30,170 nucleotides of DNA from a virus (lineage: Duplodnaviria; Heunggongvirae; Uroviricota; Caudoviricetes): positions 1-30,170 of IMG/VR virus record IMGVR_UViG_2541047794_000005; one strand, given 5' to 3'. A program made the translations under genes and the position numbers. The notes under the pieces are model-generated. The model was not told the origin of the DNA. It saw nothing but the letters and a program-made list of their open reading frames with translations, and ran no database searches. Shown here piece after piece: positions 2,771-30,170 of the stretch (position 1 is the first letter of the stretch; each line of letters begins with the position of its first letter).

Positions 2771-3343
2771 TCAGGGGGATTCATTACTCTTATTTGCCGG
2801 AAATTTTCTATAAATTGTGGAAACACCCACATCAAAAATCAGTGCAATACGCTGTCTTGATTCTCCGGCCTCGAGTAAGCGTCCAATCTGTGCCCACTGT
2901 TCGGTGGTCAACTTAGGACGGCGTCCACCTACTCTGCCTTTATCACGAGCTGCAGCCAGCCCCGCCCTGGTACGTTCAACTATCAGTTCGCGTTCCATTT
3001 CAGCCAGGGCCCCCATGACATGAAAAAAGAAACGGCCCATTGGGGTGCTGGTATCAATACTGTCAGTCAGGCTTCGGAAATTCACGCCACGCTGACGCAA
3101 CTCTTCTATCAGCGTAACAAGATGCCGCATACTGCGCCCCAACCTGTCCAGCTTCCAGACAACCAGAGTGTCTCCAACCGATAGTGTCCTGAGCAGTTTT
3201 TTAAGCCCCGGTCTGTCGGGCTTAGTGCCACTGATTTTGTCCTCAAAAATCCGCTCACATCCCGCGCAGTTCAGTGCATTACGTTGCAAATCTGTGTTCT
3301 GGTCATTTGTTGACACGCGTACATAGCCAATAAGCATGATCAA
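2771..3343 (-). CDS. Serine recombinase, Hin/Gin/Cin/Pin-family DNA invertase (190 aa)
   Basis: N-terminal IGYVRVSTNDQ catalytic-serine motif, C-terminal HTH, and typical invertase size. Lies 50 bp from the left crossover site. Confidence 0.9.
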   Translation of the reverse strand: MIMLIGYVRVSTNDQNTDLQRNALNCAGCERIFEDKISGTKPDRPGLKKLLRTLSVGDTLVVWKLDRLGRSMRHLVTLIEELRQRGVNFRSLTDSIDTSTPMGRFFFHVMGALAEMERELIVERTRAGLAAARDKGRVGGRRPKLTTEQWAQIGRLLEAGESRQRIALIFDVGVSTIYRKFPANKSNESP

Positions 3344-3418: not shown

Positions 3419-5289
3419 GGGGCTCCAGCTAATGGCGGCACGTGCGATAGGCCGACAGCTGCTATGCCAGCATCCGTTATCGGTTCCTGATCGTTCATGG
3501 TACTAGGGGAGTTTATTGGCCCGATATTCACTGTTACAGGTAACACGGTCCGCTCTATCGGTGGACAGGTCCCTGTACTATTCGACGAACACCGTAAGGT
3601 CATAGTTATTTGTGATTCCGAGGGCGGTAAGGCAGTCGCGTGTAACCCTCTCACGGGGGATTTGCACGCAATTTTTGATCATGCACGCAATTCAGCGTTG
3701 CGTATGGCGAACGGTCTTACCGCACAACATTCCCGATACGGTTAAAATTCGGTAAGACGGTATACATGTGGAAACGTGGGTACAGTTACAATAAAAGAGC
3801 GCGGTCCTAAGGTGAGCTCAACATCGCTAATCCTTAGTCCTCCTAGTGTTCCACGGATTGGAGAGAATTTGGCAAATGTATTGACACAAACCCTTTCAAG
3901 GAAGCTTGCGTATGAAATTCCAGAGGGGGCTTAGTAGGGAAGCCTGCATGTATTGAAATTGCGCCGGCTACTGTTGAGGACGATATTGGCTGTTCCTATC
4001 TGGAAGCGGTGCCATTGATTAATCAGGGCAAGTCAGACATATACATTAAGACATGGCCAAGTAAGCCCGCGATTGCTAGCGTGATTGACGCGGGAGAAGC
4101 GATTCATAGTTAATGGGTAGTATATATGGACACGCTATGGCTGCTTGATGCAGACGGTCCCCCTGATACCGAATACCCAACTGCAACGGGCGCAGCTGCC
4201 ACATGGCATCCTGCGGTGTGCTTCAAACAGTTTTAGTCAACGCGTTAACAGATTACGGCATACCGTTAATGGGGGTGTGATCAGTGGGCGTCAGCTACCG
4301 AGCCGCATCTTATTTCCGTTGTATCAGCCGCAGAAGAGCGGCGCCAGTAGCAGATTGATGCTGGCGTGGCGCCCATGACGCTTATACTACTGAGATTACC
4401 TGCCCCTCGGTAGCCGACACCCACTTCTAACCCTCCCATTAACCCTATGCTGGTTTATATTGACGCGGGGCAGGACCGTGATAGATGGCAACGGCCTGAT
4501 CCACTGTGACATGAACTGCCTTTGGAGTTGACTAATCGGTCTCTGGGCCACCGGCTGTATCAAGGAGCCACACCTCGCCCGGATAATCCGCCCATTAACC
4601 CGATTGCTCCTCGTCCTGATCATTAACACTACCACACGCGGGCATACTAACCCCATGCTTAATGTTTTCATCATCGCAGACGGGATTTATAAATTGCTCT
4701 GCTTTAAAATCGGCAGCAGGCATTTCTCCCTGCTGTGTTGGCAGCCGATTTTCAACACATACAGGTTTCCTTACGTAGACCCCTCTAGAATGTTATACTG
4801 GATATTCCTTGGTAAGTTCGCCGGCACTACTTTTCCCCTTATCGCACCAATACCCTTGACATTAGGAGAGTTCATGGTAAGTAATTTTGAGCTCCCCATG
4901 GGAAAGCGTTTGTCCATCTGCACTATAACCCCGTCACCACATGTAGACCGTATTCTCGAGTTAAATCTGTATCTTGATTTCTCTGCGATAACACCGGTCC
5001 CCGCCCACCATTCTAAATTGCGGATATGATCAAAAATTGTGTATGAATCCTCTGTGACAAGATTCGATCCGACTTCAATCACGCCATCGGACTTACAAAT
5101 ACCAATGAAATTCGCCCGTGCAGCGGATGATGTCGGCACCGGTCAACTGTTAAACAGCGCCGGGTTTCCTGAAACAGAGCATTACGGGCCAATATACTTA
5201 CAAGACAGCCTGAACGATCCCCAATCAAAAACGAATTCTGGCATATCAGGTATCTGCCAGTCTCATGGGACGACATCACCTTGCGCTCC
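3419..5289. other. Invertible DNA segment (about 1.9 kb) bounded by inverted crossover sites; no intact ORF in any frame
   Basis: Bounded by inverted 26-bp sites with an adjacent invertase gene. The ORF track shows only short overlapping ORFs (122 aa or less) with no protein-like content. Confidence 0.6.
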
Positions 5290-6351
5290 TTCTCCCAAAC
5301 CAAGGTATGTGAGAAGACCAGCGACATCCTTTCCACTCAAATTAGTCAGCGTATTGTCCAGCGGTTGTTTACCTGCCAGCGCATTAAGCATTGTCGTGGC
5401 AAAGTTCGGGTCATTCCCCAGCGCCGCCGCCAGTTCGTTCAGTGTATCCAGTGCCGCAGGTGCAGAACCCACCATTGCCGCAATCGCCGATTTCACAAAA
5501 GCCGTGGTGGCAATCTGTGTATTGTTAACCGACTGTGCGGCAGTGGGGGCTGTTGGCGTTCCGGTGAGTTCCGGACTTGACAGCGGCGCTTTCAGTGCCA
5601 GCGCATTGTTAATGGTGGTACTGAATTTCGGATCATTGTTAATGGCTGCGGCTAATTCTTTCAGCGTGTCCAGCGTGGCTGGCGCACCATTAATCAGGGC
5701 CGTCAGTGCCGCCTGAACAAACGCGGTGGTCGCAACCTGCGTGGTGTTATTCCCTGCCGCTGGCGTTGGCGCTTTTGGTGTCCCGGTAAACGTCGGACTT
5801 TCTTTGGGTGCATACTGTGAATGCGGGTCCGGTGCGGCAAGATGTTTTGCCATCTGATCATCCACGTACACCTTCAGCTCCAGTACCTTGTCATCCACAT
5901 ACTTGCGGGTTGCCAGCACTACGGCAGGGTCGATTTTCAGGGTGATATTGTCCGTGCTGCTGGTAATCAGCACCATGCGCACGGTCTGGGTACGCCCGCT
6001 GCCTTCAGCCAGTTGCGGTTTATAGCTTTCCGGGCAGTTCCCCACGGCAATCAATGCCCCTGACTCATCAAACAGGCCCACTTCACGTATCCACCAACCG
6101 CCCTCGTTTTCAGGGATCACCTGTTCAGCAATAATCTGGCTGCTGTTCTGCGGGTCGATATAGAGCATATTCAGCGCAGCCCGGCGTTTCTCATTTACCA
6201 GTGCCGTCTGCTTTGCGTCCGGCGTCGGCAATGCTCCGCCGCCATCGCCCACCGCCATATGGGTAATTTTTAGCGGCACACCGAGCGCGGCGGCGCTGGC
6301 AAGTTTCGCCTCGCCAATATCCGTCAGCAGGGTATAAAATTTTGTGCTCAT
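5263..6351 (-). CDS. H: Tail fibre protein, constant N-terminal part only (362 aa); frame stops 8 codons after the crossover site
   Basis: N-terminus MSTKFYTLLTDIGEAKLA..., the central Ala/Thr-rich repeats and ...NELAAALGNDPNFATTMLNALAGKQP match P2 H. P2 H is much longer, so the receptor-binding C-terminal domain is absent in this orientation. Confidence 0.8.
   Translation of the reverse strand: MSTKFYTLLTDIGEAKLASAAALGVPLKITHMAVGDGGGALPTPDAKQTALVNEKRRAALNMLYIDPQNSSQIIAEQVIPENEGGWWIREVGLFDESGALIAVGNCPESYKPQLAEGSGRTQTVRMVLITSSTDNITLKIDPAVVLATRKYVDDKVLELKVYVDDQMAKHLAAPDPHSQYAPKESPTFTGTPKAPTPAAGNNTTQVATTAFVQAALTALINGAPATLDTLKELAAAINNDPKFSTTINNALALKAPLSSPELTGTPTAPTAAQSVNNTQIATTAFVKSAIAAMVGSAPAALDTLNELAAALGNDPNFATTMLNALAGKQPLDNTLTNLSGKDVAGLLTYLGLGEGAQGDVVP
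5290..5315. repeat. 26-bp invertase crossover site, right, inside the 3' end of H
   Basis: TTCTCCCAAACCAAGGTATGTGAGAA shares the left half-site exactly with 3393-3418 (inverted) and the central AA. It encodes the YLGLGEG junction of the tail fibre. Confidence 0.75.
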
Positions 6352-6953
6352 GGATTCACTCTCATTGTGTCAATAACATGGACCGCCCCGCCTTCATGCG
6401 CGGTGCCACCGGAAATAATCGTTTCGTTGATATACGGATAGATCGTGATTTCTTCGCCAAGATAGCTGGCGGCTCCCACCCAATGCGGGCCGCTGGTCTG
6501 CAGATTGATGGACATGCCGATCATGTGGCGGCTACATGGTTTGGCATCGCTTATCAGTCGCTCAAGTTCCAGATAGGTATCTTCAGTGATGCCCTGGTCC
6601 TGCACGCCGATATCCAGGCGAAACATGCCCGGTGCCTCTCCGGTTTGCCACCACTCAATAATGCGGATCAGAAAGCCGAACGGCTCCACCACCCGCCGCA
6701 CGGCACTGGTGGTCCCTTTATGCTGATGAATATAAAAAGCATCCTTCACCACCTGGCGCTTGACGCTTTCTGTCCAGCCCTCGTCCCAGCGATCCACAGA
6801 GAACGCCCAGGCGAGATAAGGCAGGAAACTGACCGGACAGGTTGCCGGATTCCACAAGTCACGAAGCGGCACCTGCAGATCAGAAATCCCGCTGCAGGTT
6901 TGCGCCAGTCGGCGCTCCAGTGGTGTTGAACCCGGTGGCAGCAGACTATTCAT
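6348..6953 (-). CDS. I: Baseplate protein gpI (201 aa)
   Basis: Synteny J-I-H, with stop/start overlap with H. Confidence 0.8.
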   Translation of the reverse strand: MNSLLPPGSTPLERRLAQTCSGISDLQVPLRDLWNPATCPVSFLPYLAWAFSVDRWDEGWTESVKRQVVKDAFYIHQHKGTTSAVRRVVEPFGFLIRIIEWWQTGEAPGMFRLDIGVQDQGITEDTYLELERLISDAKPCSRHMIGMSINLQTSGPHWVGAASYLGEEITIYPYINETIISGGTAHEGGAVHVIDTMRVNP

Positions 6954-7854
6954 CCGTTCCTCCGTTGGTTACGCTCCACTGCGTACATGATGCCGCCTGT
7001 GTTTTGTTCAGGACCACATCCGCCAGAGGAGAAGCCAGCTCCACACGCTGCACACCCTCAACATGCAGGGCGGCAAAGATGGCGCTACGGCGAATATCCC
7101 GACCAAGACGCGTCTGACTGGCGATGTACTTCTGCAGGCTGGCTTTTGCCGCTGCCATTACCGGCTCTGCTTCCGGTCCCGGATAGAGAAAAATGGTGGC
7201 TTCCACGCGATACGGGATGATTTCTGCGCTGCGAACCGTCAGACGGTCAGCCACCGGGCGGACGTTCTCACTGTTCAGAGCTTTTTCCACCACGTCCAGC
7301 AGGTCTTTTTCTGCAGTTCCATCGCCTTCGCGGCTAAGGACAGTCAGCACCACCTCTGCAGGCGCCGGGCTGGTTGCACTGGCATCCGCCACCCGACCGT
7401 CGGCGCTTCGGGCATGAAATTCATAAGCTGCAGTTGGCCCCGCAACAGAAAGCCCTTCAAAGGCTGCAGGCACACGCAGGCGTAACGCTTCATCGCTTTC
7501 CATCACAGCCGCAACGGGTGGCACAGCGTCATTATCAGCAGGCGTCACCGTCAGGCGTTTCACGTTGTAGTTGGCAGCGAGCTGGTCAAGATCGCCGCCC
7601 ATCGCGTAAGCCACCATCACAGCATGCGCGGCTTCGTTAATGCGCTGGCGCAGAAGCAACTCACGGTAAGCGTTCTCCTGAAGCAATTTGGTGACGGGTT
7701 CAGATTCCAGTTCCAGCGTGCGGATCACTGCTTCCTGCTCATCTTTCGGATGAAGCGCAACAAATTCGGCCTTGCGTTCGGCAATCAGCGTCTCAAAGTC
7801 CGGCACATCCACAATCTGCGGCGCAGGCAACTGCGAAAGGTCAATCACTGCCAT
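6946..7854 (-). CDS. J: Baseplate protein gpJ (302 aa from ATG 7854)
   Basis: Synteny. The internal ATG at 7854 gives 302 aa, overlapping the W stop. Confidence 0.85.
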   Translation of the reverse strand: MAVIDLSQLPAPQIVDVPDFETLIAERKAEFVALHPKDEQEAVIRTLELESEPVTKLLQENAYRELLLRQRINEAAHAVMVAYAMGGDLDQLAANYNVKRLTVTPADNDAVPPVAAVMESDEALRLRVPAAFEGLSVAGPTAAYEFHARSADGRVADASATSPAPAEVVLTVLSREGDGTAEKDLLDVVEKALNSENVRPVADRLTVRSAEIIPYRVEATIFLYPGPEAEPVMAAAKASLQKYIASQTRLGRDIRRSAIFAALHVEGVQRVELASPLADVVLNKTQAASCTQWSVTNGGTDE

Positions 7855-8200
7855 TCTCTGCTCCTGTTGATACGGAAAGGGAAACAGGCACACCGTTATT
7901 ACGCCGCCCGGTCAGCTCCACCACCATTGAACCGTCAAAATTGCTGTTAATGGTGATGGAATCCAGCGTCAGCCGTGGCTCCCAGCGACTCAGCGCCACA
8001 TACACTGCCGACATGACCTGCAGGCGTAATGCCGGATTTTGTGGCTGGTCTATCAGTGCCGACAGCAGGGAACCATATTCCCGACGGGCAATGCGGCTAC
8101 CCTGCGGCGTCAGCAAAATGTCCCGCACCGACTGGCGCAGATGGTCAATATCAGTAATGGCTTTACCGCTGGTATTGTTCATCCCGCTATAAAGCGTCAT
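7841..8200 (-). CDS. W: Baseplate wedge protein gpW (119 aa, GPW/gp25 family)
   Basis: Size and position match P2 W. Confidence 0.85.
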   Translation of the reverse strand: MTLYSGMNNTSGKAITDIDHLRQSVRDILLTPQGSRIARREYGSLLSALIDQPQNPALRLQVMSAVYVALSRWEPRLTLDSITINSNFDGSMVVELTGRRNNGVPVSLSVSTGAENGSD

Positions 8201-19131: not shown

Positions 19132-19836
19132 TCATCTAACAGATACTTTTGCATAAATCAAAGGCCTATCCGAAGAGCCATTTTTACGTACGACCACTCC
19201 ACTGATATCATGGTTTTTACTAAGATCTCGTAATGCGGCGCACAATGCCTTGTTGACATACCCTAGATGATTGTCGTTTTTCGTTACTAATATGGCCAGC
19301 GGATCAACAGTATTGGTATCTTCATTGCGCAATATGACTTCATCACCAATTGATATCTCGTCAAGAGCTAGACGCCCTTCCTTAATCATGTGTCTCGTTC
19401 CGGCGACCTCCATGACATAATCAAAAGGTGGCCGAATAGAAGACAAGTCTGGGACAAAATAAAAACCATCACTAGCCACTTTTCCGCCAGTACAAGCGAG
19501 CAAAACGAAGTCATTCTCTCTAAAATCAGCAGGAAGACGAAACGTCAGCAAGTAATCGGCAAAATCTTCTCTTTTCCTGGAGGGTAACCTTCTTGAAAAG
19601 GTTTGCATAACGTCTTTGCGATGAGTCGTAACTTTTATGTCAAAAGCAGGAAAACCGTGAAAGCCTTTATCCCCAGCTTTAGCAAAATCTTTGCTATCCG
19701 TAAGATAATTAAACTCGTAGCCTTCAGACTCATCTTGAAGAAGTTCACCAACGACATAGCGAGAGCCGCCGTCGGTCGGTTGCCATGTCAGTAAGAGCCT
19801 ACTTGGCATGGGAATTTTTTCTATTAAGATAGTCAT
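19132..19836 (-). CDS. HipA N-terminal-subdomain-like (HipS-like) protein with a C-terminal HIRAN-like domain (234 aa)
   Basis: The N-terminal ~150 aa (LLLTW...VGELL...YEFNY; DFVLLACTGGKVASDGFYFVP) resemble the N-subdomain of E. coli HipA as I recall it. The C-terminal ~85 aa has an HIRAN-like pattern. ATGA overlap with the kinase gene. Confidence 0.55.
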   Translation of the reverse strand: MTILIEKIPMPSRLLLTWQPTDGGSRYVVGELLQDESEGYEFNYLTDSKDFAKAGDKGFHGFPAFDIKVTTHRKDVMQTFSRRLPSRKREDFADYLLTFRLPADFRENDFVLLACTGGKVASDGFYFVPDLSSIRPPFDYVMEVAGTRHMIKEGRLALDEISIGDEVILRNEDTNTVDPLAILVTKNDNHLGYVNKALCAALRDLSKNHDISGVVVRKNGSSDRPLIYAKVSVR

Positions 19837-20744
19837 GAAGTAACACCTTTAATCAGTTCAATACGCATGTTTGTTACACGAACAATCCATGCAGCACGTT
19901 CTCTAGTCAGCGGAACAGGGCAGTTTATTTCCGTCAACTCCGCAAAAGTTGAGTCCCAAAAGTCATGGTTCAAACGAGCCAGTCTTTCAGCTACCCGCTG
20001 TTTTAATTCTTCTTTTTTATCACAAAGTTCTTTGATTAACTCTAAATGACCTAATCTCTGATACTCATCTTTGCCCAGAGTTTTACGCAAATGATGCTTT
20101 CCCCGGCTAACATGCTCCCTGAGTCTATGATCGGTCCAATCAGCAACATGTTCCGGAAAGCGTTCGTAGCATAAGCTCGTACCATTATCGAAAAATGGTG
20201 CAAGCTGACACTCGCTGGTTAAAGGGGAGAAGATAAACCCCCAGTTTTCTTGATGTCTATCTGTATTACCTATTACTGCGTCAAAGAGAGCCATATTCTC
20301 CAACCACTCAACATAGTCAACTTTAAGAGCTTTCGCGATAATCCTCAGCCCTTCAATGGAATGCTTAGCTCCTTTCTCACGATCAAAATTTGGATCTCTT
20401 CGAACAAAGTAATCACCAGCGGGAGCAAATTTCTCATAATCTTTATGATGAAACCACTCAATGAGGGCCCCGCAAAACGTATGCCCCAAATCATTAGTCT
20501 TTAACGAAGGAACTGCTTTGGGGACATTAAAACCAAGCTGCAATCCAATCCTGTAGGCAACGATCTCACACCAAAATTGATCTGGGTATTTTTTAATACT
20601 TCTCTTAAAAAGATACGGCCACGATGCTTTGATACCATGGGGGGCAACATCAGGGGAAATAACCAATGCCTTAGAGCGAGCACCAACAGGATACTGTGCG
20701 AAAACATCTAGCTCAGTCCAATAGGTTACATCTAAGCAATCCAT
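19833..20744 (-). CDS. HipA-like Ser/Thr kinase, core domain only (303 aa, HipT-like)
   Basis: Motif VIGNTDRHQENWGF and a downstream FFDNG correspond to the HipA catalytic loop (GxTDxHxxN) and Mg-binding Asp. It lacks the ~150-aa HipA N-subdomain. RBS AGGA upstream. Confidence 0.8.
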   Translation of the reverse strand: MDCLDVTYWTELDVFAQYPVGARSKALVISPDVAPHGIKASWPYLFKRSIKKYPDQFWCEIVAYRIGLQLGFNVPKAVPSLKTNDLGHTFCGALIEWFHHKDYEKFAPAGDYFVRRDPNFDREKGAKHSIEGLRIIAKALKVDYVEWLENMALFDAVIGNTDRHQENWGFIFSPLTSECQLAPFFDNGTSLCYERFPEHVADWTDHRLREHVSRGKHHLRKTLGKDEYQRLGHLELIKELCDKKEELKQRVAERLARLNHDFWDSTFAELTEINCPVPLTRERAAWIVRVTNMRIELIKGVTS

Positions 20745-20759
20745 AGCTAAGTCCTATAT

Positions 20760-21305
20760 TTATTTTTTATTTAAATTCATATAGATGTGAGAAACCTGTG
20801 CGATCTGAAATAAAACATCATCGAATGCTGTGTGCCTAATGCCAGTGAAATTTTTATCAGCATGAGAAAAAATTCCTTTGCTTTCACCAAGTGCTAAGAT
20901 GGTTCTAACGTCAAGAGTATCTCTGAATGACCATGGGCAATCCAGACCCGCCTGTAACAGGGCATGATGCATGATCGTGCAGTCAAACTCTTTCCCGTTT
21001 CCCCACACTTTTACTCGGCCAGTACGATTATGAAGAATAAATGCCACAAATTCATTCAGAACCTCTAAAAGGTCCTTAGTGCCATCAAAATTTTCGTTTT
21101 TAGCTTCAGTACTTTGATTCATCCACCACTTTACAGTAGAGGGGGCAATGGTTCTGCCTGCTTGTTCATGATCAAGCGAAATAACTTGATAGAAACCCGG
21201 ACCAATCTCGCCAGTCTCCGGCACGAAAAAAGCCGCACCAACTGAAAGGATATAAGCTGTTTTTTCAACATCCAATGTTTCTATATCTAACATTACATGA
21301 TTCAT
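20760..21305 (-). CDS. DEDDh-family 3'-5' exonuclease (DnaQ/RNase T-like), about 181 aa from ATG 21305
   Basis: Exo I motif MLDIETLD near the N-terminus and Exo III motif HTAFDDV near the C-terminus. First gene of the three-gene operon. Confidence 0.75.
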   Translation of the reverse strand: MNHVMLDIETLDVEKTAYILSVGAAFFVPETGEIGPGFYQVISLDHEQAGRTIAPSTVKWWMNQSTEAKNENFDGTKDLLEVLNEFVAFILHNRTGRVKVWGNGKEFDCTIMHHALLQAGLDCPWSFRDTLDVRTILALGESKGIFSHADKNFTGIRHTAFDDVLFQIAQVSHIYMNLNKK

Positions 21306-21801
21306 AAGAAGCAATTGAAACCATTTAGTAAAAATTGAAAGCTATCACCACATTAATGCATGGCATGTACATTTGTGGACGAAAACAAGTATTCTGATTA
21401 TAACCCAAGTGAAAAGCTCAAGTGTCGTAACTTTCACTCGGTTGTTTTCAGTTTCGAAAAACTACTGGGAAGATCCATCTAGTGGTTGTATTCATGAGCG
21501 CGAATTCTCGCCATCAGCTCATCAGTCAACTCAGAAACCCACTGCAGAGCCAGCCCCTTCTCTTCATCACTACACTCACTAGCCGCTACAAGCTTAAGAA
21601 AAAAATCAATGCGCTGGAGCTTCAAAGACTCCAAAAAATAGTCCTGCATCTTTCCTCCTATGACACCACAAGCAATACTGTATGCACAACCACTGTTTAT
21701 ATTTACAGTATATAATAATCTTACTGATGTAAAACGTTTTTTACGTTCATCAGCCTGATATGCCTGGTATTATTAAGAGCACGAATTGTTAACCCACGTG
21801 A

Positions 21802-22158: not shown

Positions 22159-24242
22159 ATTTTCAGCAAGGGGACAGTTATTGCCACGAGTCCAAGGGGA
22201 CAGTTATTGCCACGAGTCCAAGGGGCGCAAGCGCCCTGGTCGGCTGCCGCCTCCTGAACGTCAACGGCCTTACGAACCATTTTCCACTTCACTGCATGAG
22301 TACAAATCTTGCCCTCTGCAATGGGTGACCAGATGCCATAAATACGAATACCGTGATCGCCATAGGCGGTCGGCTCTTCGTTAATTTCATAAGCTGTTCT
22401 GATAAGGTGATATTTGCGGGGAACCAGTACGCCGCCCTGCTTCATAATGTAGGTGGCAAAACAACCAGCATCAGCAGCAGCCAGGATTGCATCAAGGCGC
22501 GGGTTATCCAGTACCGGCGCACCTGCTTTTTTGTCCCCCTGTTGCCTTGCCGCCTGACCAGCCAGCAATCGCAGTTCACGGTAAGCCTGACGCCCCGGAA
22601 TGCCAAAGAAGCGGAATTGCTGAACACGATGCAGAGACGCCCAAGCATTAACGTATTCAGCATTATCACGCAGGGATTTCCCCGTTTCCTTGCTGATCTC
22701 GCCAGCCAGACCACGCCCGTCCATGTTCTTACTGATGTATTTCGCGATGTAGCTTGTTGGCGTACCTTTGCGCGGGTTAATCAACTCAGACTTAAAGCGC
22801 GGCCCAGTGTTATTGCCCAGCTCCTCGCGGTCTTCACGGATGGCAAACTTACGCAGTAATGCAGTGATGGCGCGGCGGTCTTTTTTGCGCATAAAACACA
22901 ACAGGTGCCAGTGAACTGTACCGTCATGATGCGGCTCAGCCACCCGCACGCCATACCAGCGCAATCCGGCTTTGTGCATCGCCTTACGAAATGCAGCAAA
23001 CATGCCGACCAGATAATCACTACTTTGTCTTACCGTCGCATTTGTCCAGGTTGGGTTGGGCCTGCCGTTATTTAGCGTGGAATGGAAACGTGACGGACAG
23101 GTGATGGTGTAGAAAACGGCGCAGTCACCGCGCATTTCCGCGATAAGCTCCAGGCCTTTAACACAGGCCATCATCTCATTGCGGCGATGCGCAGGGTTGC
23201 TGCTGCTGGCGTTTACCACATCCTCCATGTCCAGCGTGTCGCCGTCTTCGTTCACCAGTTCATGAGAACGAAAAAACTCCAGCGACTTACGGCGCTGCTC
23301 ACGTTTATGCATCACGGCTTCATAGCTGACATAGGGAGATGCTTTTTTGCTGACCAGGCAAACAGCACGCAACTGCTCTTCCCGCCATTCGCAACGCATC
23401 TTCCATAATTTCCGGTACCACCAGTCGGCGCACAACATACGCGCCAGCGAACCCGGAATGAGTTCATAGGGCACGGGTTTACGGCGGTTTCTTTTCCGGC
23501 GGAGTTGATCAAACGCAGGCGGGATGACATCCAGACGCAGGGTTTCCGCTGCCACCTTTTCCCATGTCTTGCGGATTTCTTCTGGCTTAACGTCATCGGT
23601 GACATACAAATCGCCACAAGCTGCATCAAGGCACATGCTCATATGCGCAGCGACAAGGGTAGACAAGCGTTTCACCTGATCCTGACTCATTTCAGGCAGG
23701 ATCAGCAGGCCGTCCAGCCCTTCATGGCTTGCCATAAAGCGAAAAGAAGTGGATAGCTGACTGTCGCGTACATGCTCCAGTCGTTCCAGACATGGCTTAA
23801 TCGTCTCACGCAAATAGCGGGAATAAGCCTTTGGCCTGCCTAGGCTGCTGAAGTATTCAATACGTTGCAACAGCGGCTTGCTGATATGGGAAGGCTGGGC
23901 ATTGACGTCCGCCAGAATGACCATATCTGGATTAAAACGCTGCTGCTCATGCGCCAGCTTTGCCCGGCTAATGAGCTTATCCTGCTCCATTTCGCGTTGG
24001 ACAGGATCACGGGATTCATTAAAGAAATAACGCTCCCAGACCTGATCACTCAGTGCCTCGCGGCGCAGTTGTTCCTGCTCGTTATCGGCAGCGTACAGAG
24101 TGATCAGGTTTGAAAGCGCAGAAACCGGCGCAACTTCCGCCGGGTCCAGATAAGGGTTAATAGCCTTTTTCGGGCTGTTCCATGAGAATGCTGCGGCGGC
24201 CTCGTTAAAGCCGCTGCAGTTGTTCATATCAGCATGGCTCAT
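22155..24242 (-). CDS. A: Replication initiation protein A (rolling-circle nickase, 695 aa)
   Basis: Motifs [25 protein letters not shown] and QFRFFGIPG...AYRELRLLA match the P2-family A protein. Confidence 0.85.
22170..22221. repeat. Perfect tandem direct repeat, 2 x 26 bp (GGGGACAGTTATTGCCACGAGTCCAA), within the last 20 codons of A
   Basis: Read directly from the sequence: 22170-22195 equals 22196-22221. Confidence 0.9.
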
Positions 24243-25095
24243 GCACGCACTCCGTACACGGCAGAACTATCCACGCCACGCGAAGGCTCAAATCCCACCC
24301 AGCAGCGCGCCCAGAAACAGCGATGATTTCTGTTGCAGATTTACTCTCACCAGCTGCTACGCCGATGCTGCGTTTTGCCTTGATGTAGTGGTGAGTAAAA
24401 TTGCGATACAGCGAACGGATCAGGGATGTGTCACTGTTAGAAACAATGACCGGATGTCCTTCTGATGACCGATGTTCAAGAACGGATGCCAGGTGATACT
24501 GGTCATCTTCAGTGAAGCCGTCAGTGTGATAACCGGAAAACGTGCCGTCATACGGCGGATCGCAATACACCACATCCCCCGCCTTCAACATCGCCAGCGT
24601 TTCATCAAAGCTGGCGCAGATAAACGTTGCCCGCTGGGCTTTTTCTGCAAATGCGCGAATTTCTTTTTCTGGGAAATACGGATTTTTATAATTACCGTAG
24701 GGAATGTTGAAATGCCCGCTCTTGTTATAGCGACATAAACCACGGTAACCGTGACGATTGAGATACAGGAAATATACCGCTTTCATGAAATCAGTAATTT
24801 CATTTGAGTAATTAAACTCCTGCCTTATGTTGTAATAAGCCACCTCCCTGTTTGCTTCCTTAAATAAAACTCTGGCGCGAGATATAAACGATTCACAATC
24901 AGCGGCAACCTTTTTATAGAGGTTGATTAAATCAGGATTAATATCCGCAACCAGATAGCTTGGATAATCCGTCTCCATCATCACAGCACAGGAACCCGCG
25001 AAAGGTTCAACCAGTCGCGGGCCAGCAGGAAGGTGTTTTTTCAGTTCGGACATAATTGCGGTTTTATTTCCCGCCCATTTCAGGATGGTGCTCAT
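24229..25095 (-). CDS. Dam-like DNA adenine (N6) methyltransferase (288 aa from ATG 25095)
   Basis: N-terminal LKWAGNK...LVEPFAGS (AdoMet motif I) and DPPY catalytic motif. Strong RBS AGGAGGTG. ATGA overlap with the upstream gene. Confidence 0.85.
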
Positions 25096-25394
25096 ACAGC
25101 ACCTCCTGCAATAACATATCCTAAAGCTTCTAATGGGGTTAATGAGCGAATTGATAGCATCACCCATTGTTCTGAAACTGCCATGACGTCATTAACCGGA
25201 AGCACATGAGAGATAACCGCGGCCCATTCCCTACCCGTAAATACGCCATGCTTCCATTCGCAAAGAGAAAGAACATCACCAACTTTATAGCCACGATCGT
25301 CTTTACGAAGTTCAGCCGTCTTTTGACCTGCAACCACAGCGTTGAAATACTTAGGTGCAATTTTTAATTGATGGATACGCACAGCCCCTGTCAT
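25092..25394 (-). CDS. ASCH/DUF3850-like small protein (100 aa from ATG 25394)
   Basis: [35 protein letters not shown] matches the pattern of ASCH-like proteins commonly paired with phage methyltransferases. RBS GGAGGTG. Confidence 0.6.
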
Positions 25395-26507: not shown

Positions 26508-26681
26508 TTTGACTTTCTCCGTTTCCCCGTGGTCAATTCAGACAGCAATTCATCTTGTGAACGGCACGGATGCCAGCGTTTACCATCCTCACCCATGATC
26601 CAGCCGTGACCGTAGTGCATTGCCGGGCTTTGTTTTACCAGCAGCGATGCAAATGATGGTTCTTTCGTCAGCATAAGCACC

Positions 26682-27570: not shown

Positions 27571-28449
27571 ATGAATTTCAAAAACGGAGGACAGGCAGTC
27601 ATAACGCGCATGCTTGAAGCGTATGGATTCAAGACGCGGCAAGCCCTATGTGAACAGTTCAATGTATCTGCAAGTACTATGGGAACGCGCTGGATGCGTG
27701 ACGCATTTCCTGCTGACTGGGTAATTCAGTGTGCAATTGAAACAGGAGCATCTATAGAGTGGCTCTCATTCGGAAAAGGCGTGCCATTTCCTAAGAATAC
27801 CGAAGTTCCCGCTAAATTAGAGGAACCAGCATCATTGGTTCAATATGTTCCCAAAGCCACCACCAACGAGAACCCAATTGTGAACCATCCAAATCTGGAT
27901 TCAGGTGGACGTAATGCGATAAACAGGCTAATGGAAGCGTATGGCTTTAAAACAAGACAAGAACTTGCCGACCATTTGAATGTGTCTAAAAGCACAATGG
28001 CGAATAGATACTTGCGAGACACATTCCCAGCTGACTGGATCATAAGATGCTCGTTGGAAACAAGAACTTCTCTTTTATGGTTAGCAACTGGGCGCGGGCA
28101 AAAACTTGGAAGCGAAGAAAGTGAAGCTTTAGAAATTCCTAAAGTAAAACTTATTGACAATCAAATTTTCGATGCTGGTCATTTATTGATAGATAAGTCC
28201 CTGCTTCCTCATTTTAATGATTTACTCGCAATTGAAGACGAACATTGCATAAATATTGCACACATGAATAAAGCTAATGTTGAAGACGGAAGATGGATTG
28301 TTCAATACCAAAATAATTTCAAGTTAAAACAAATTTTTCTATTACCTGGAGGCAATCTTCGAGTAACAGACGATGATTTAACATTTGATTGTGAAAAAGA
28401 AGATATAAAATTAGTTGCCAAAATTTTCTCACAGTACCGTACTATTTAA
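27571..28449 (+). CDS. CI-type immunity repressor (186 CI-like HTH) with a tandemly duplicated DNA-binding domain and an AT-rich C-terminal domain (292 aa)
   Basis: Two copies of MLEAYGFKTRQ-L...NVS-STM--R--RD-FPADW-I-C--ET--S--WL--G-G at residues ~9-70 and ~115-176. Divergent from Apl/Cox across the switch region. Confidence 0.75.
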   Translation: MNFKNGGQAVITRMLEAYGFKTRQALCEQFNVSASTMGTRWMRDAFPADWVIQCAIETGASIEWLSFGKGVPFPKNTEVPAKLEEPASLVQYVPKATTNENPIVNHPNLDSGGRNAINRLMEAYGFKTRQELADHLNVSKSTMANRYLRDTFPADWIIRCSLETRTSLLWLATGRGQKLGSEESEALEIPKVKLIDNQIFDAGHLLIDKSLLPHFNDLLAIEDEHCINIAHMNKANVEDGRWIVQYQNNFKLKQIFLLPGGNLRVTDDDLTFDCEKEDIKLVAKIFSQYRTI

Positions 28450-28464
28450 TCTTGAGGCATAGTA

Positions 28465-29493
28465 ATGGATTTTATAAAAAAACTCGAATTTGGAAATTAT
28501 ACTCTCCGTTTTGGTGATGATGTTTTGCTAGACTATTATGATGAAATTGTTTTCCCCTCTTTTTTGGAGATGGCAAACATCCGCAGAATATCTGACAAAT
28601 CAGAGTTCTTTTTCATTGATACTGAATGCGTCATACTTGACGAAGAAGCAACACCCCCAGTACTCGGAATTAAAGGTCGGATTATTAAGAATACATTATT
28701 AACCAGAGAACAAGTATTTGATGGTGCTGATTTGGTTGAAGATCATCAAGAGCTTGAAACAGCCCCGAGCTCTTTCTTTCTTCTAATATTAAACACTCAC
28801 AGATTAATTCTTTGCAAGGAAGTTAGTGGTGCTCCCACAATTCAAAACTTTCAGTCAACAAGTCAGTGTTTCTTAAACATAGAATATGAAAAATACATAT
28901 CTCATTTATACGAAACCGCACAAGAAGAACGCAAAGAAAACCCTGACTTACCTCGAGTCACTAAAAAAAGCTTACGGAACGAAATCAAACGCCCGAAGCT
29001 AAGAATAACGCCGTTAACTGACAAACAAAGCCTAGAGCAATTTATTGATAATTTTAATAAAATCCAAAATGTCTCAGTAAAACTTCTCCCTACAAATCAA
29101 GAAGAAATTGATAACGACGAATTTTGGGAGTCACTTGAAAGTGCCGGAGACGAAATGGGAAGTATTTCTACATCTATTCGCTTTTCAAACACCGATTCAG
29201 GCTTGAATCATGGTGCTGTTTTAGAACAACTCACATCAGCAACCAGATTGGCTAATTCAGGAATAAATATTAAAGGATATGATGACAATGGTGATATAAT
29301 CAAAGGTAGCAATGATGACTTTGTTTTGTTAAGTGAGATGAATGAATTATCAAAGGATACGGTAGTAGCTGCAAATGAAAGTTATGAGCGGTATGAAAAT
29401 CTTGTAGAAGAAGGTAAGATATCTCTACCCCGTTCTCTTTCACAAAAGACGATTAGAATTATTAGCAATATATATGAAAGGTTTGGTCGATGA
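28465..29493 (+). CDS. Hypothetical soluble protein (342 aa), AT-rich, immediately downstream of the repressor
   Basis: RBS GAGG 8 nt upstream of ATG 28465, which is 15 bp after the repressor stop. No family recognised. Confidence 0.7.
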   Translation: MDFIKKLEFGNYTLRFGDDVLLDYYDEIVFPSFLEMANIRRISDKSEFFFIDTECVILDEEATPPVLGIKGRIIKNTLLTREQVFDGADLVEDHQELETAPSSFFLLILNTHRLILCKEVSGAPTIQNFQSTSQCFLNIEYEKYISHLYETAQEERKENPDLPRVTKKSLRNEIKRPKLRITPLTDKQSLEQFIDNFNKIQNVSVKLLPTNQEEIDNDEFWESLESAGDEMGSISTSIRFSNTDSGLNHGAVLEQLTSATRLANSGINIKGYDDNGDIIKGSNDDFVLLSEMNELSKDTVVAANESYERYENLVEEGKISLPRSLSQKTIRIISNIYERFGR

Positions 29494-30170
29494 TAAATAA
29501 AATAGATGCTAAAGAAATAACCAAAGAGAAAAACCTTTGGGATGTTTACTTGCTCTGCAAACGGATTACTATTAGTACATTCCATATTTGCATTTTGCTC
29601 ACAGCATCTATTTTTTTATTAACAAACTCTTTTTTTATTGAGAAGGATATGTCTCATTTAGTATCTGACATTAGAAACTGGGCTTTGATTGGTTTTAACT
29701 TTGCAGTGACAACCTTAGGTTTTCTCATTGCTGGTTTCACAATATTTGCAACACTATCCAAACCCGAGATGTTTCTTCAGATGATGTCAATACAACATAA
29801 AAAAACACAGATGCCCACGTTAAAATATAACTTTATGGCATTTATGAAAGTTTTCATCTCATTTATTACGTTTACTTTCATTTATCTAATAATAATTCTC
29901 TTTTGTCAAAAAGATGGAATAATTGGCAATATAATTGATTTATTTCCATATTCAAAATCGATAAAAGAATTAATTATTAAATTTGGATACTGTGTTATAG
30001 GGACTAGCCTTATTTACTTAGTGTTAGTAGTAAAGACATTTATTTTTAATATCTACGCTATCATAATGAATAATATTCGTTGGGAGTTATACATTAAAAG
30101 AAAAGAACAAAGACTTTCCAGTAACAAAGAGACAATCAATAAAAACATAGATGTAACTAAAATGCATTAA
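29490..30170 (+). CDS. Hypothetical polytopic membrane protein (226 aa, about 4 transmembrane helices), AT-rich
   Basis: ATGA overlap with the upstream gene. Four long hydrophobic segments. Stop TAA is the last codon of the window. Confidence 0.7.
   Translation: MINKIDAKEITKEKNLWDVYLLCKRITISTFHICILLTASIFLLTNSFFIEKDMSHLVSDIRNWALIGFNFAVTTLGFLIAGFTIFATLSKPEMFLQMMSIQHKKTQMPTLKYNFMAFMKVFISFITFTFIYLIIILFCQKDGIIGNIIDLFPYSKSIKELIIKFGYCVIGTSLIYLVLVVKTFIFNIYAIIMNNIRWELYIKRKEQRLSSNKETINKNIDVTKMH

Follow-up and report, generated by a model that had tools for sequence, protein, structure and literature searches.

The 30,170-nucleotide stretch of DNA analysed here, hereafter called the window, is IMG/VR virus record IMGVR_UViG_2541047794_000005 (positions 1 to 30,170; Caudoviricetes). 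Two AT-rich genes at its end, which directly follow the cI repressor gene of a prophage, were selected for study. These genes, hereafter called ORF342 and ORF226 (for open reading frames of 342 and 226 amino acids), had been read from the sequence in an earlier note (the original prediction) as encoding a soluble protein and a membrane protein in a layout like that of lambda cI-rexA-rexB, and had been proposed as a candidate exclusion or abortive-infection module. The features of the locus and of the remainder of the prophage are collected in Table 1.

Table 1 Features of the window and their coordinates.
Feature	Position	Strand	Description
cI repressor, 186 type	27571..28449	+	292 aa; PF07022 twice (E 4e-59), PF16452 (E 2e-16); first gene of the presumed lysogenic operon
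cI 3′ part, CI C-terminal domain	28100..28449	+	GC 0.31; inherited with the downstream pair, not with the cI 5′ part
cI-ORF342 spacer	28450..28464	+	15 bp; GAGG ribosome-binding site; no terminator by sequence reading and terminator scan
ORF342	28465..29493	+	342 aa; soluble; predicted RexA/RdgC fold; presumed infection sensor or activator
ORF226	29490..30170	+	226 aa; predicted inner-membrane protein with four transmembrane segments; presumed membrane effector
Serine recombinase/invertase	2771-3343	-	190 aa; match to Mpi/XisF-type resolvase-invertase N-terminal domain
HIRAN-domain protein	19132-19836	-	234 aa; match to PADLOC candidate PDC-M03B, E 4e-36
HipA-like kinase-domain protein	19833-20744	-	303 aa; match to PADLOC candidate PDC-M03A, E 4e-36
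184-aa open reading frame	20760-21314	-	adjoins the PDC-M03 genes; by position, the RefSeq 3′-5′ exonuclease gene of strain GmF052

The two reading frames were found at the coordinates originally given for them. The cI stop codon (TAA, 28447-28449) is followed by the 15-bp gap that had been described, in which a GAGG Shine-Dalgarno sequence (28454-28457) lies 7 nt ahead of the ORF342 ATG, and the ORF342 stop and ORF226 start share an ATGA at 29490-29493. A consensus scan of the + strand agreed with the predicted lack of a terminator after the repressor, finding none in either the cI-ORF342 or the ORF226-int interval; the sole + strand hairpin within the pair (window ~29521-29540) lies inside ORF226, and its T tail is poor. 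The last codon of the window is the ORF226 stop, and int starts 90 bp further on in identical E. coli genomes. The contrast in base composition was also as predicted: ORF342 has a GC content of 0.354 and ORF226 one of 0.279, compared with 0.52 over window positions 1-27000 and 0.48 in the downstream int gene. By our own estimate, the probability of 342 stop-free codons arising by chance at the GC content of ORF342 is roughly 1e-12, and both frames are real genes, as each has hundreds of full-length homologues.

Hydropathy analysis identified no hydrophobic segments in ORF342 and four in ORF226, in agreement with the proposed division into a soluble and a four-helix protein. The structure of ORF342 was predicted with AlphaFold2 from 97 homologues (predicted local distance difference test score, pLDDT, 86.5; predicted template modelling score, pTM, 0.83). 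A Foldseek search of the PDB with this model returned two significant matches only, both to lambda RexA chains (8TWQ; E 1.9e-6 and 5.9e-6; probability 1.00), which makes lambda RexA the best structural match of ORF342; the next match had an E-value of 0.08. The global template modelling score (TM-score) between ORF342 and RexA is 0.30-0.35 and about half of RexA superposes rigidly, and the low score fits a hinged two-domain protein that has about 60 extra residues. Judged from the model, ORF342 has the two-domain fold of RexA and RdgC. The structure-based and remote-homology searches that had been suggested with the original prediction thus recovered the RexA fold through Foldseek, and the sequence profiles gave no significant match to RexA.

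The only recurrent Pfam signal among the homologues of ORF342 was DUF4747 (PF15931), which was seen in 7 of the 97 sequences (best E 1.2e-6) and in 3 of 139 in a second set. The homologue matches, exemplified by homologue P0096 at 21.5 bits, fall below the gathering threshold of 27 bits, and ORF342 itself has no DUF4747 match at E<=1, a pattern that points to a distant relationship rather than to membership of this family. Weak DUF4747 matches (HHpred) have been described for lambda RexA, gp30 of mycobacteriophage Sbash, and gp44 of Gordonia phage CarolAnn, each of which is paired with a protein of four transmembrane (TM) segments in a validated two-gene prophage defence system. A search of the PDB sequences with a hidden Markov model (HMM) of the family gave no match.

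The hydrophobic segments of ORF226 span residues 25-51, 64-90, 115-149, and 160-196. Its AlphaFold model (pLDDT 80.5) likewise contains four helices, which are long and cover these segments, in addition to a C-terminal helix. The protein is basic (pI 9.5), with loop charges of +2, -1, +3, +1, and +4, and these charges suggest an N-in/C-in topology in which both termini and the central loop are cytoplasmic. Conservation peaks in TM2 (0.89) and in the central cytoplasmic loop (0.83). In its predicted topology ORF226 is therefore a small four-TM inner-membrane protein, as expected of a RexB-type partner.

Neither protein had a match in Pfam, PADLOC v2 (at E<=1, including Kiwa KwaA/KwaB and the PDC candidates), PHROGs v4, or NCBIfam 20, and a megablast search against phage genomes found no match. 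Kiwa had been considered for its architecture (a four-TM KwaA with KwaB), and was rejected as there was no PADLOC match. Homologue searches returned 167 and 280 clusters at 90% identity, all annotated as 'hypothetical', with homologues of about 50% identity spread across Vibrio, Shewanella, Aeromonas, Pseudomonas, Halomonas, Serratia, Dickeya, and others; members are abundant in Vibrio and also occur in Salmonella. An exhaustive profile search extended the family to 693 clusters at 50% identity, nearly all of them full length at 320-350 amino acids.

The pairing of the two genes was examined by local HMM searches in 12 genome loci, 13 IMG/VR loci, and contigs of Serratia, Klebsiella, Vibrio, and Pseudomonas. 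In every complete locus examined, the gene that directly follows the ORF342 homologue is an ORF226 homologue, with start and stop overlapping or nearly abutting; the only two loci lacking an ORF226 homologue both carry a truncated ORF342 homologue. The locus thus shows the conserved adjacent genes for a RexA-fold protein and a four-TM protein that define a RexAB-type arrangement. To our knowledge, RdgC (the E. coli recombination-associated DNA-binding protein, 2OWL) is a stand-alone housekeeping protein without a membrane partner, and ORF342 differs from it in having a strictly conserved one.

The contexts of the pair fall both inside and outside prophages. In P2/186-like phages the genes always stand in the order cII | cI, ORF342, ORF226, int. 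The pair occupies this slot in Serratia prophages (59% identity), in ten IMG/VR contigs (100-59%), and in Klebsiella phage 4LV2017 (42%), where a previously unannotated 201-aa four-TM homologue of ORF226 was found in the gp02-int interval (NC_047818; locus extract 4552-5157, + strand). In Vibrio, Pseudomonas, Halomonas, Shewanella, and others the pair occurs without CI or a prophage context. In V. harveyi it adjoins both a Druantia system and an AlpA gene; in a 43-kb Vibrio element it lies between methylase, SNF2 helicase, HNH, and resolvase genes; and in Pseudomonas it follows ychF and is itself followed, about 4 kb downstream, by a HigB toxin gene. In 12 further genomes, genes for DruE-like helicases and for restriction-modification of types I and III are found near the pair, among housekeeping genes. 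No integron attC-like repeat arrays were found around the Vibrio and IMG/VR loci. The DNA sequences available for pairwise comparison were either more than 99.8% identical or saturated. In the loci examined, and as far as gene order and sequence can tell, the pair behaves like a mobile module of two genes that is complete in itself and is often met near defence genes.

The phage itself is classed from its genes as 186-like (Peduoviridae). Its CI carries two tandem copies of the helix-turn-helix domain (residues ~9-79 and ~110-178), both of which match PF07022, and differs in this from the CI of phage 186, which has 192 residues and one copy; pair-bearing relatives carry either form, with CI proteins of 189-197 or 292-313 residues. 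An Apl/Cox-like gene and, on the opposite strand, a CII (CP76) gene are neighbours of cI. The repressor is thus of the 186 type and not a P2 C protein, so that the comparison with P2 repressor C in the original prediction does not hold. The argument for an insertion into the lysogeny operon stands nonetheless, by way of phage 186: there the cI stop overlaps the int start with nothing inserted between, which places the pair as an insertion exactly at the cI/int junction, the same slot that it occupies in the P2-like phages of Serratia, Klebsiella, and IMG/VR. In phage 186, cI and int form one lysogenic operon that is transcribed from pL and pE and has its terminator past int, and the pair is likely to be co-transcribed with cI. 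The 2.8-kb stretch was found in 13 of 5,426 complete E. coli genomes at an identity of at least 99.8%. Strain GmF052, for example, harbours a complete P2-like prophage with the order cII, apl, cI, ORF342, ORF226, and int, and with attR beside rcdA.

Taken together, we consider it likely that the pair is a prophage-borne abortive-infection or exclusion system of the RexAB type, inserted as cargo between cI and int in a 186-like prophage. The layout of a sensor and a membrane effector that had been proposed by analogy with rexAB is supported by the RexA fold of ORF342, the four-TM partner, the strict pairing, and the position after the repressor. As in lambda cI-rexA-rexB and in CarolAnn 45-44-43, the pair directly follows the immunity repressor without a terminator. 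The weak DUF4747 signal, the presence of PDC-M18 in the same slot of a sister prophage, and the defence genes beside the pair outside prophages also speak for this assignment. The pair most likely represents an unnamed sequence family that is new within an already known kind, of which there are experimentally validated examples from lambda, Sbash, CarolAnn, P. putida, and Vibrio ("Sucellos"); the anti-phage phenotype of the pair itself is ascribed by analogy with these systems. A very improbable reading, in our estimate, is that of a moron without a defence function of this kind, in which ORF226 would act in the membrane as a superinfection-exclusion protein and prevent the entry of DNA, or the two genes would form a toxin-antitoxin-like addiction module that stabilises the prophage. 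Membrane proteins of lysogeny operons often mediate entry exclusion, and a latent membrane toxin with a cytoplasmic partner recalls some toxin-antitoxin layouts, but such a reading leaves the RexA fold and the strict two-gene conservation outside prophages unexplained, and the Pfam, PADLOC, PHROGs, and NCBIfam scans returned no toxin-antitoxin or superinfection-exclusion (Sie) family.

Several known systems resemble the pair to different degrees. Lambda RexA/RexB (PF15969/PF15968; 8TWQ) shares with it a RexA-fold gene followed by a four-TM gene on the same strand, directly downstream of cI in a temperate coliphage. The differences are that ORF342 is 63 residues longer than RexA and ORF226 is 82 residues longer than RexB, that sequence homology is not detectable, and that the window pair, unlike that of lambda, resides in a P2/186-like myovirus, between cI and int. 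The actinophage pairs Sbash gp30/gp31 and CarolAnn gp44/gp43 likewise join a soluble DUF4747-type protein of about 370 residues to a four-TM protein, in phages that are of other types and come from a different phylum. The CarolAnn pair is co-transcribed with the repressor, the triggers of both systems are phage proteins, and defence is lost when the central loop of the membrane protein is mutated; in ORF226 this loop is, with TM2, the most conserved region. Sucellos (SclA/SclB) from the superintegron of V. cholerae N16961 is described as structurally RexAB-like and as missed by the Pfam RexA model, requires both genes, has an abortive phenotype, and has homologues 'often in Salmonella prophages' (bioRxiv 10.1101/2024.07.02.601686). 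Set beside Sucellos by description only, the window family, with its members in Vibrio and Salmonella, may or may not be the same; no V. cholerae member was seen among the named close relatives (member names of 20 clusters). RexABpp of P. putida prophage P1 (PP_5643/PP_5644; Sci Rep 2026, PMC12894663) was also compared by description only; RexApp binds DNA, a property that is doubtful for ORF342 on account of its charge.

A number of observations weigh against the assignment to the RexAB type. No significant sequence similarity connects ORF342 with RexA, and a Pfam scan at E<=1 found neither the RexA nor the RexB family; PF15969 had no match among the 97 homologues or the 139 homologues (E<=0.1/0.01). 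Alignment of the ORF342 profile with a 30-sequence RexA alignment by hhalign gave probabilities of 1.4-2.2%, and with a single RexA sequence the result was likewise non-significant. The program repeatedly paired ORF342 residues 246-314 with RexA residues 194-262, a weak correspondence that is no evidence by itself. The pair also showed no profile similarity to CarolAnn gp44/gp43 by hhalign. With 59 Asp and Glu against 38 Lys and Arg, ORF342 has a net charge of about -21 and a pI of 4.7, which makes it a very acidic protein, whereas the pI of RexA is 8.6. [quoted passage not shown] For ORF226, there was no Pfam match to RexB (PF15968), hhalign with a 108-sequence alignment gave a probability of 0.5%, and a Foldseek search of viral predicted structures (BFVD) with the model returned no significant match and did not include RexB among its matches; in length, 226 residues compare with 144 for RexB. 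The searches that had been suggested for ORF226 therefore upheld its four-helix topology and did not uphold a relationship to RexB by profile or structure, and 'RexB-like' is to be understood for ORF226 as a likeness of topology and pairing only.

A mechanism can be proposed for a RexAB-type system of this composition. The pair would be expressed in the lysogen within the cI-int lysogenic operon. ORF342, as a RexA-fold and probably dimeric cytoplasmic protein, would sense a product of a superinfecting phage; because ORF342 is strongly acidic, a phage protein or a protein-DNA complex is the more likely trigger than naked DNA. Activated ORF342 may then contact two conserved parts of ORF226, TM2 and the central cytoplasmic loop, and ORF226 would oligomerise or open to form an inner-membrane channel or pore. 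Membrane potential and ATP would be lost, growth would stop, and the infection would be aborted.

The roles of the two proteins could also be inverted, with ORF342 as a toxic or antiviral effector that ORF226 sequesters and silences until infection releases it. Logic of this kind has been described for mycobacteriophage Butters gp30/gp31, which is counted as a Rex-like system in a published discussion, and it would suit the larger size and greater conservation of ORF342, the channel nature of ORF226 being a prediction. Of the five Rex-like systems listed in that discussion, however, four have the membrane protein as their effector, defence by Sucellos requires both genes, and the conservation peak of ORF226 in TM2 and the cytoplasmic loop suits a gated membrane effector at least as well. 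An inverted arrangement is considered unlikely, and ORF226 is retained as the presumed effector of the RexAB-type system.

The boundary of the inserted block was found to differ from that originally described. The AT-rich, non-conserved block had been placed after the repressor stop; it starts at ~28100 within cI, at the linker that leads into the CI C-terminal domain. A sister prophage in E. coli STEC005 carries a different AT-rich pair, flanked by a cI 5′ half and an int gene that are both near-identical to their counterparts here, and both nucleotide and protein homology between its cI and that of the window stop at ~28100. Across eight phages, identity in the CI C-terminal domain (88, 45, 33, and 28%) tracks identity in the pair (95, 76, 60, and 42%), whereas identity in the N-terminal domain does not. 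These patterns indicate that recombination swaps the CI C-terminal domain and the cargo as one unit between 186-like phages.

The simplest explanation for the co-segregation of the CI C-terminal domain and the pair is physical linkage. We give little credence to the idea that it reflects function, in which the unusually acidic RexA-fold ORF342, which may not bind DNA, would dock on its cognate CI C-terminal domain. The membrane effector would then be activated according to the state of the 186-type switch (CI oligomer integrity, induction), making the pair a repressor-guarding device for defence or exit control rather than a simple lambda-style Rex. It is similarly improbable that the pair acts mainly on the lysis-lysogeny switch of the prophage instead of in defence, with ORF342 acting on CI or the switch region. 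The location within the lysogenic operon and the co-segregation itself would accord with such a modulator, and lambda RexA is reported to bias the switch toward lytic growth independently of RexB (PMC11077077). The same pair is found, however, without CI or a prophage in Vibrio, Pseudomonas, Halomonas, Shewanella, and others, and its core function therefore cannot depend on a 186-type switch; the acidity of ORF342 and the explanation of co-segregation by linkage count against a modulator as well. A self-contained RexAB-type system, carried with a linked part of cI, remains the favoured reading.

The slot between cI and int is a hotspot for cargo. In STEC005 it holds genes that match PADLOC candidate PDC-M18A/B, which encode a 400-aa soluble protein and a 173-aa protein with four hydrophobic segments (locus extract 6134-7859; GC 0.33), and a cI-int defence hotspot has been reported in K139-like, P2-related Vibrio phages (Rousset et al. 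2022). Of the P2 defence systems, 8% have been assigned to the interval between integrase and primase (2026 preprint). PDC-M18 (A+B) resembles the window pair in its slot, in its soluble and four-TM architecture, and in its AT-richness, and differs from it in sequence: hhalign detected no profile similarity to ORF342 or ORF226, and the window pair had no match to the PDC-M18 models.

Other features of the prophage were noted elsewhere in the window. The PDC-M03B and PDC-M03A genes occupy the classical P2 hotspot between gpA and the portal gene. The 190-aa invertase adjoins genes for tail fibre and tail-fibre assembly, and in GmF052 tail-fibre assembly genes are present there on both strands, which suggests an invertible host-range segment. 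In the GmF052 copy of the prophage, RefSeq annotates a Dam-like DNA adenine methylase gene as frameshifted (locus extract 4840-5696; window ~24240-25100) and a Fil-family gene as truncated (locus extract 7120-7275; window ~26520-26675).

If the assignment is correct, a large proteobacterial family (about 690 clusters at 50% identity) would join the handful of RexAB-type systems that have been described. The family is invisible to Pfam, PADLOC v2, PHROGs, and NCBIfam, and annotation pipelines and defence finders miss the pair. The cI-int junction of E. coli Peduoviridae would also be documented as a slot that exchanges cassettes of a soluble protein and a four-TM protein. The family would have a representative in E. 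coli, inserted in the lysogenic operon of a phage like 186, whose switch is among the best understood and for which genetics and phage panels are at hand. How RexA senses infection and gates RexB is a question that goes back seventy years, to Benzer. Since its RexA-fold protein is divergent and acidic and its membrane partner is longer than RexB, the window pair would offer a comparative handle on both sensing by RexA and gating of RexB.

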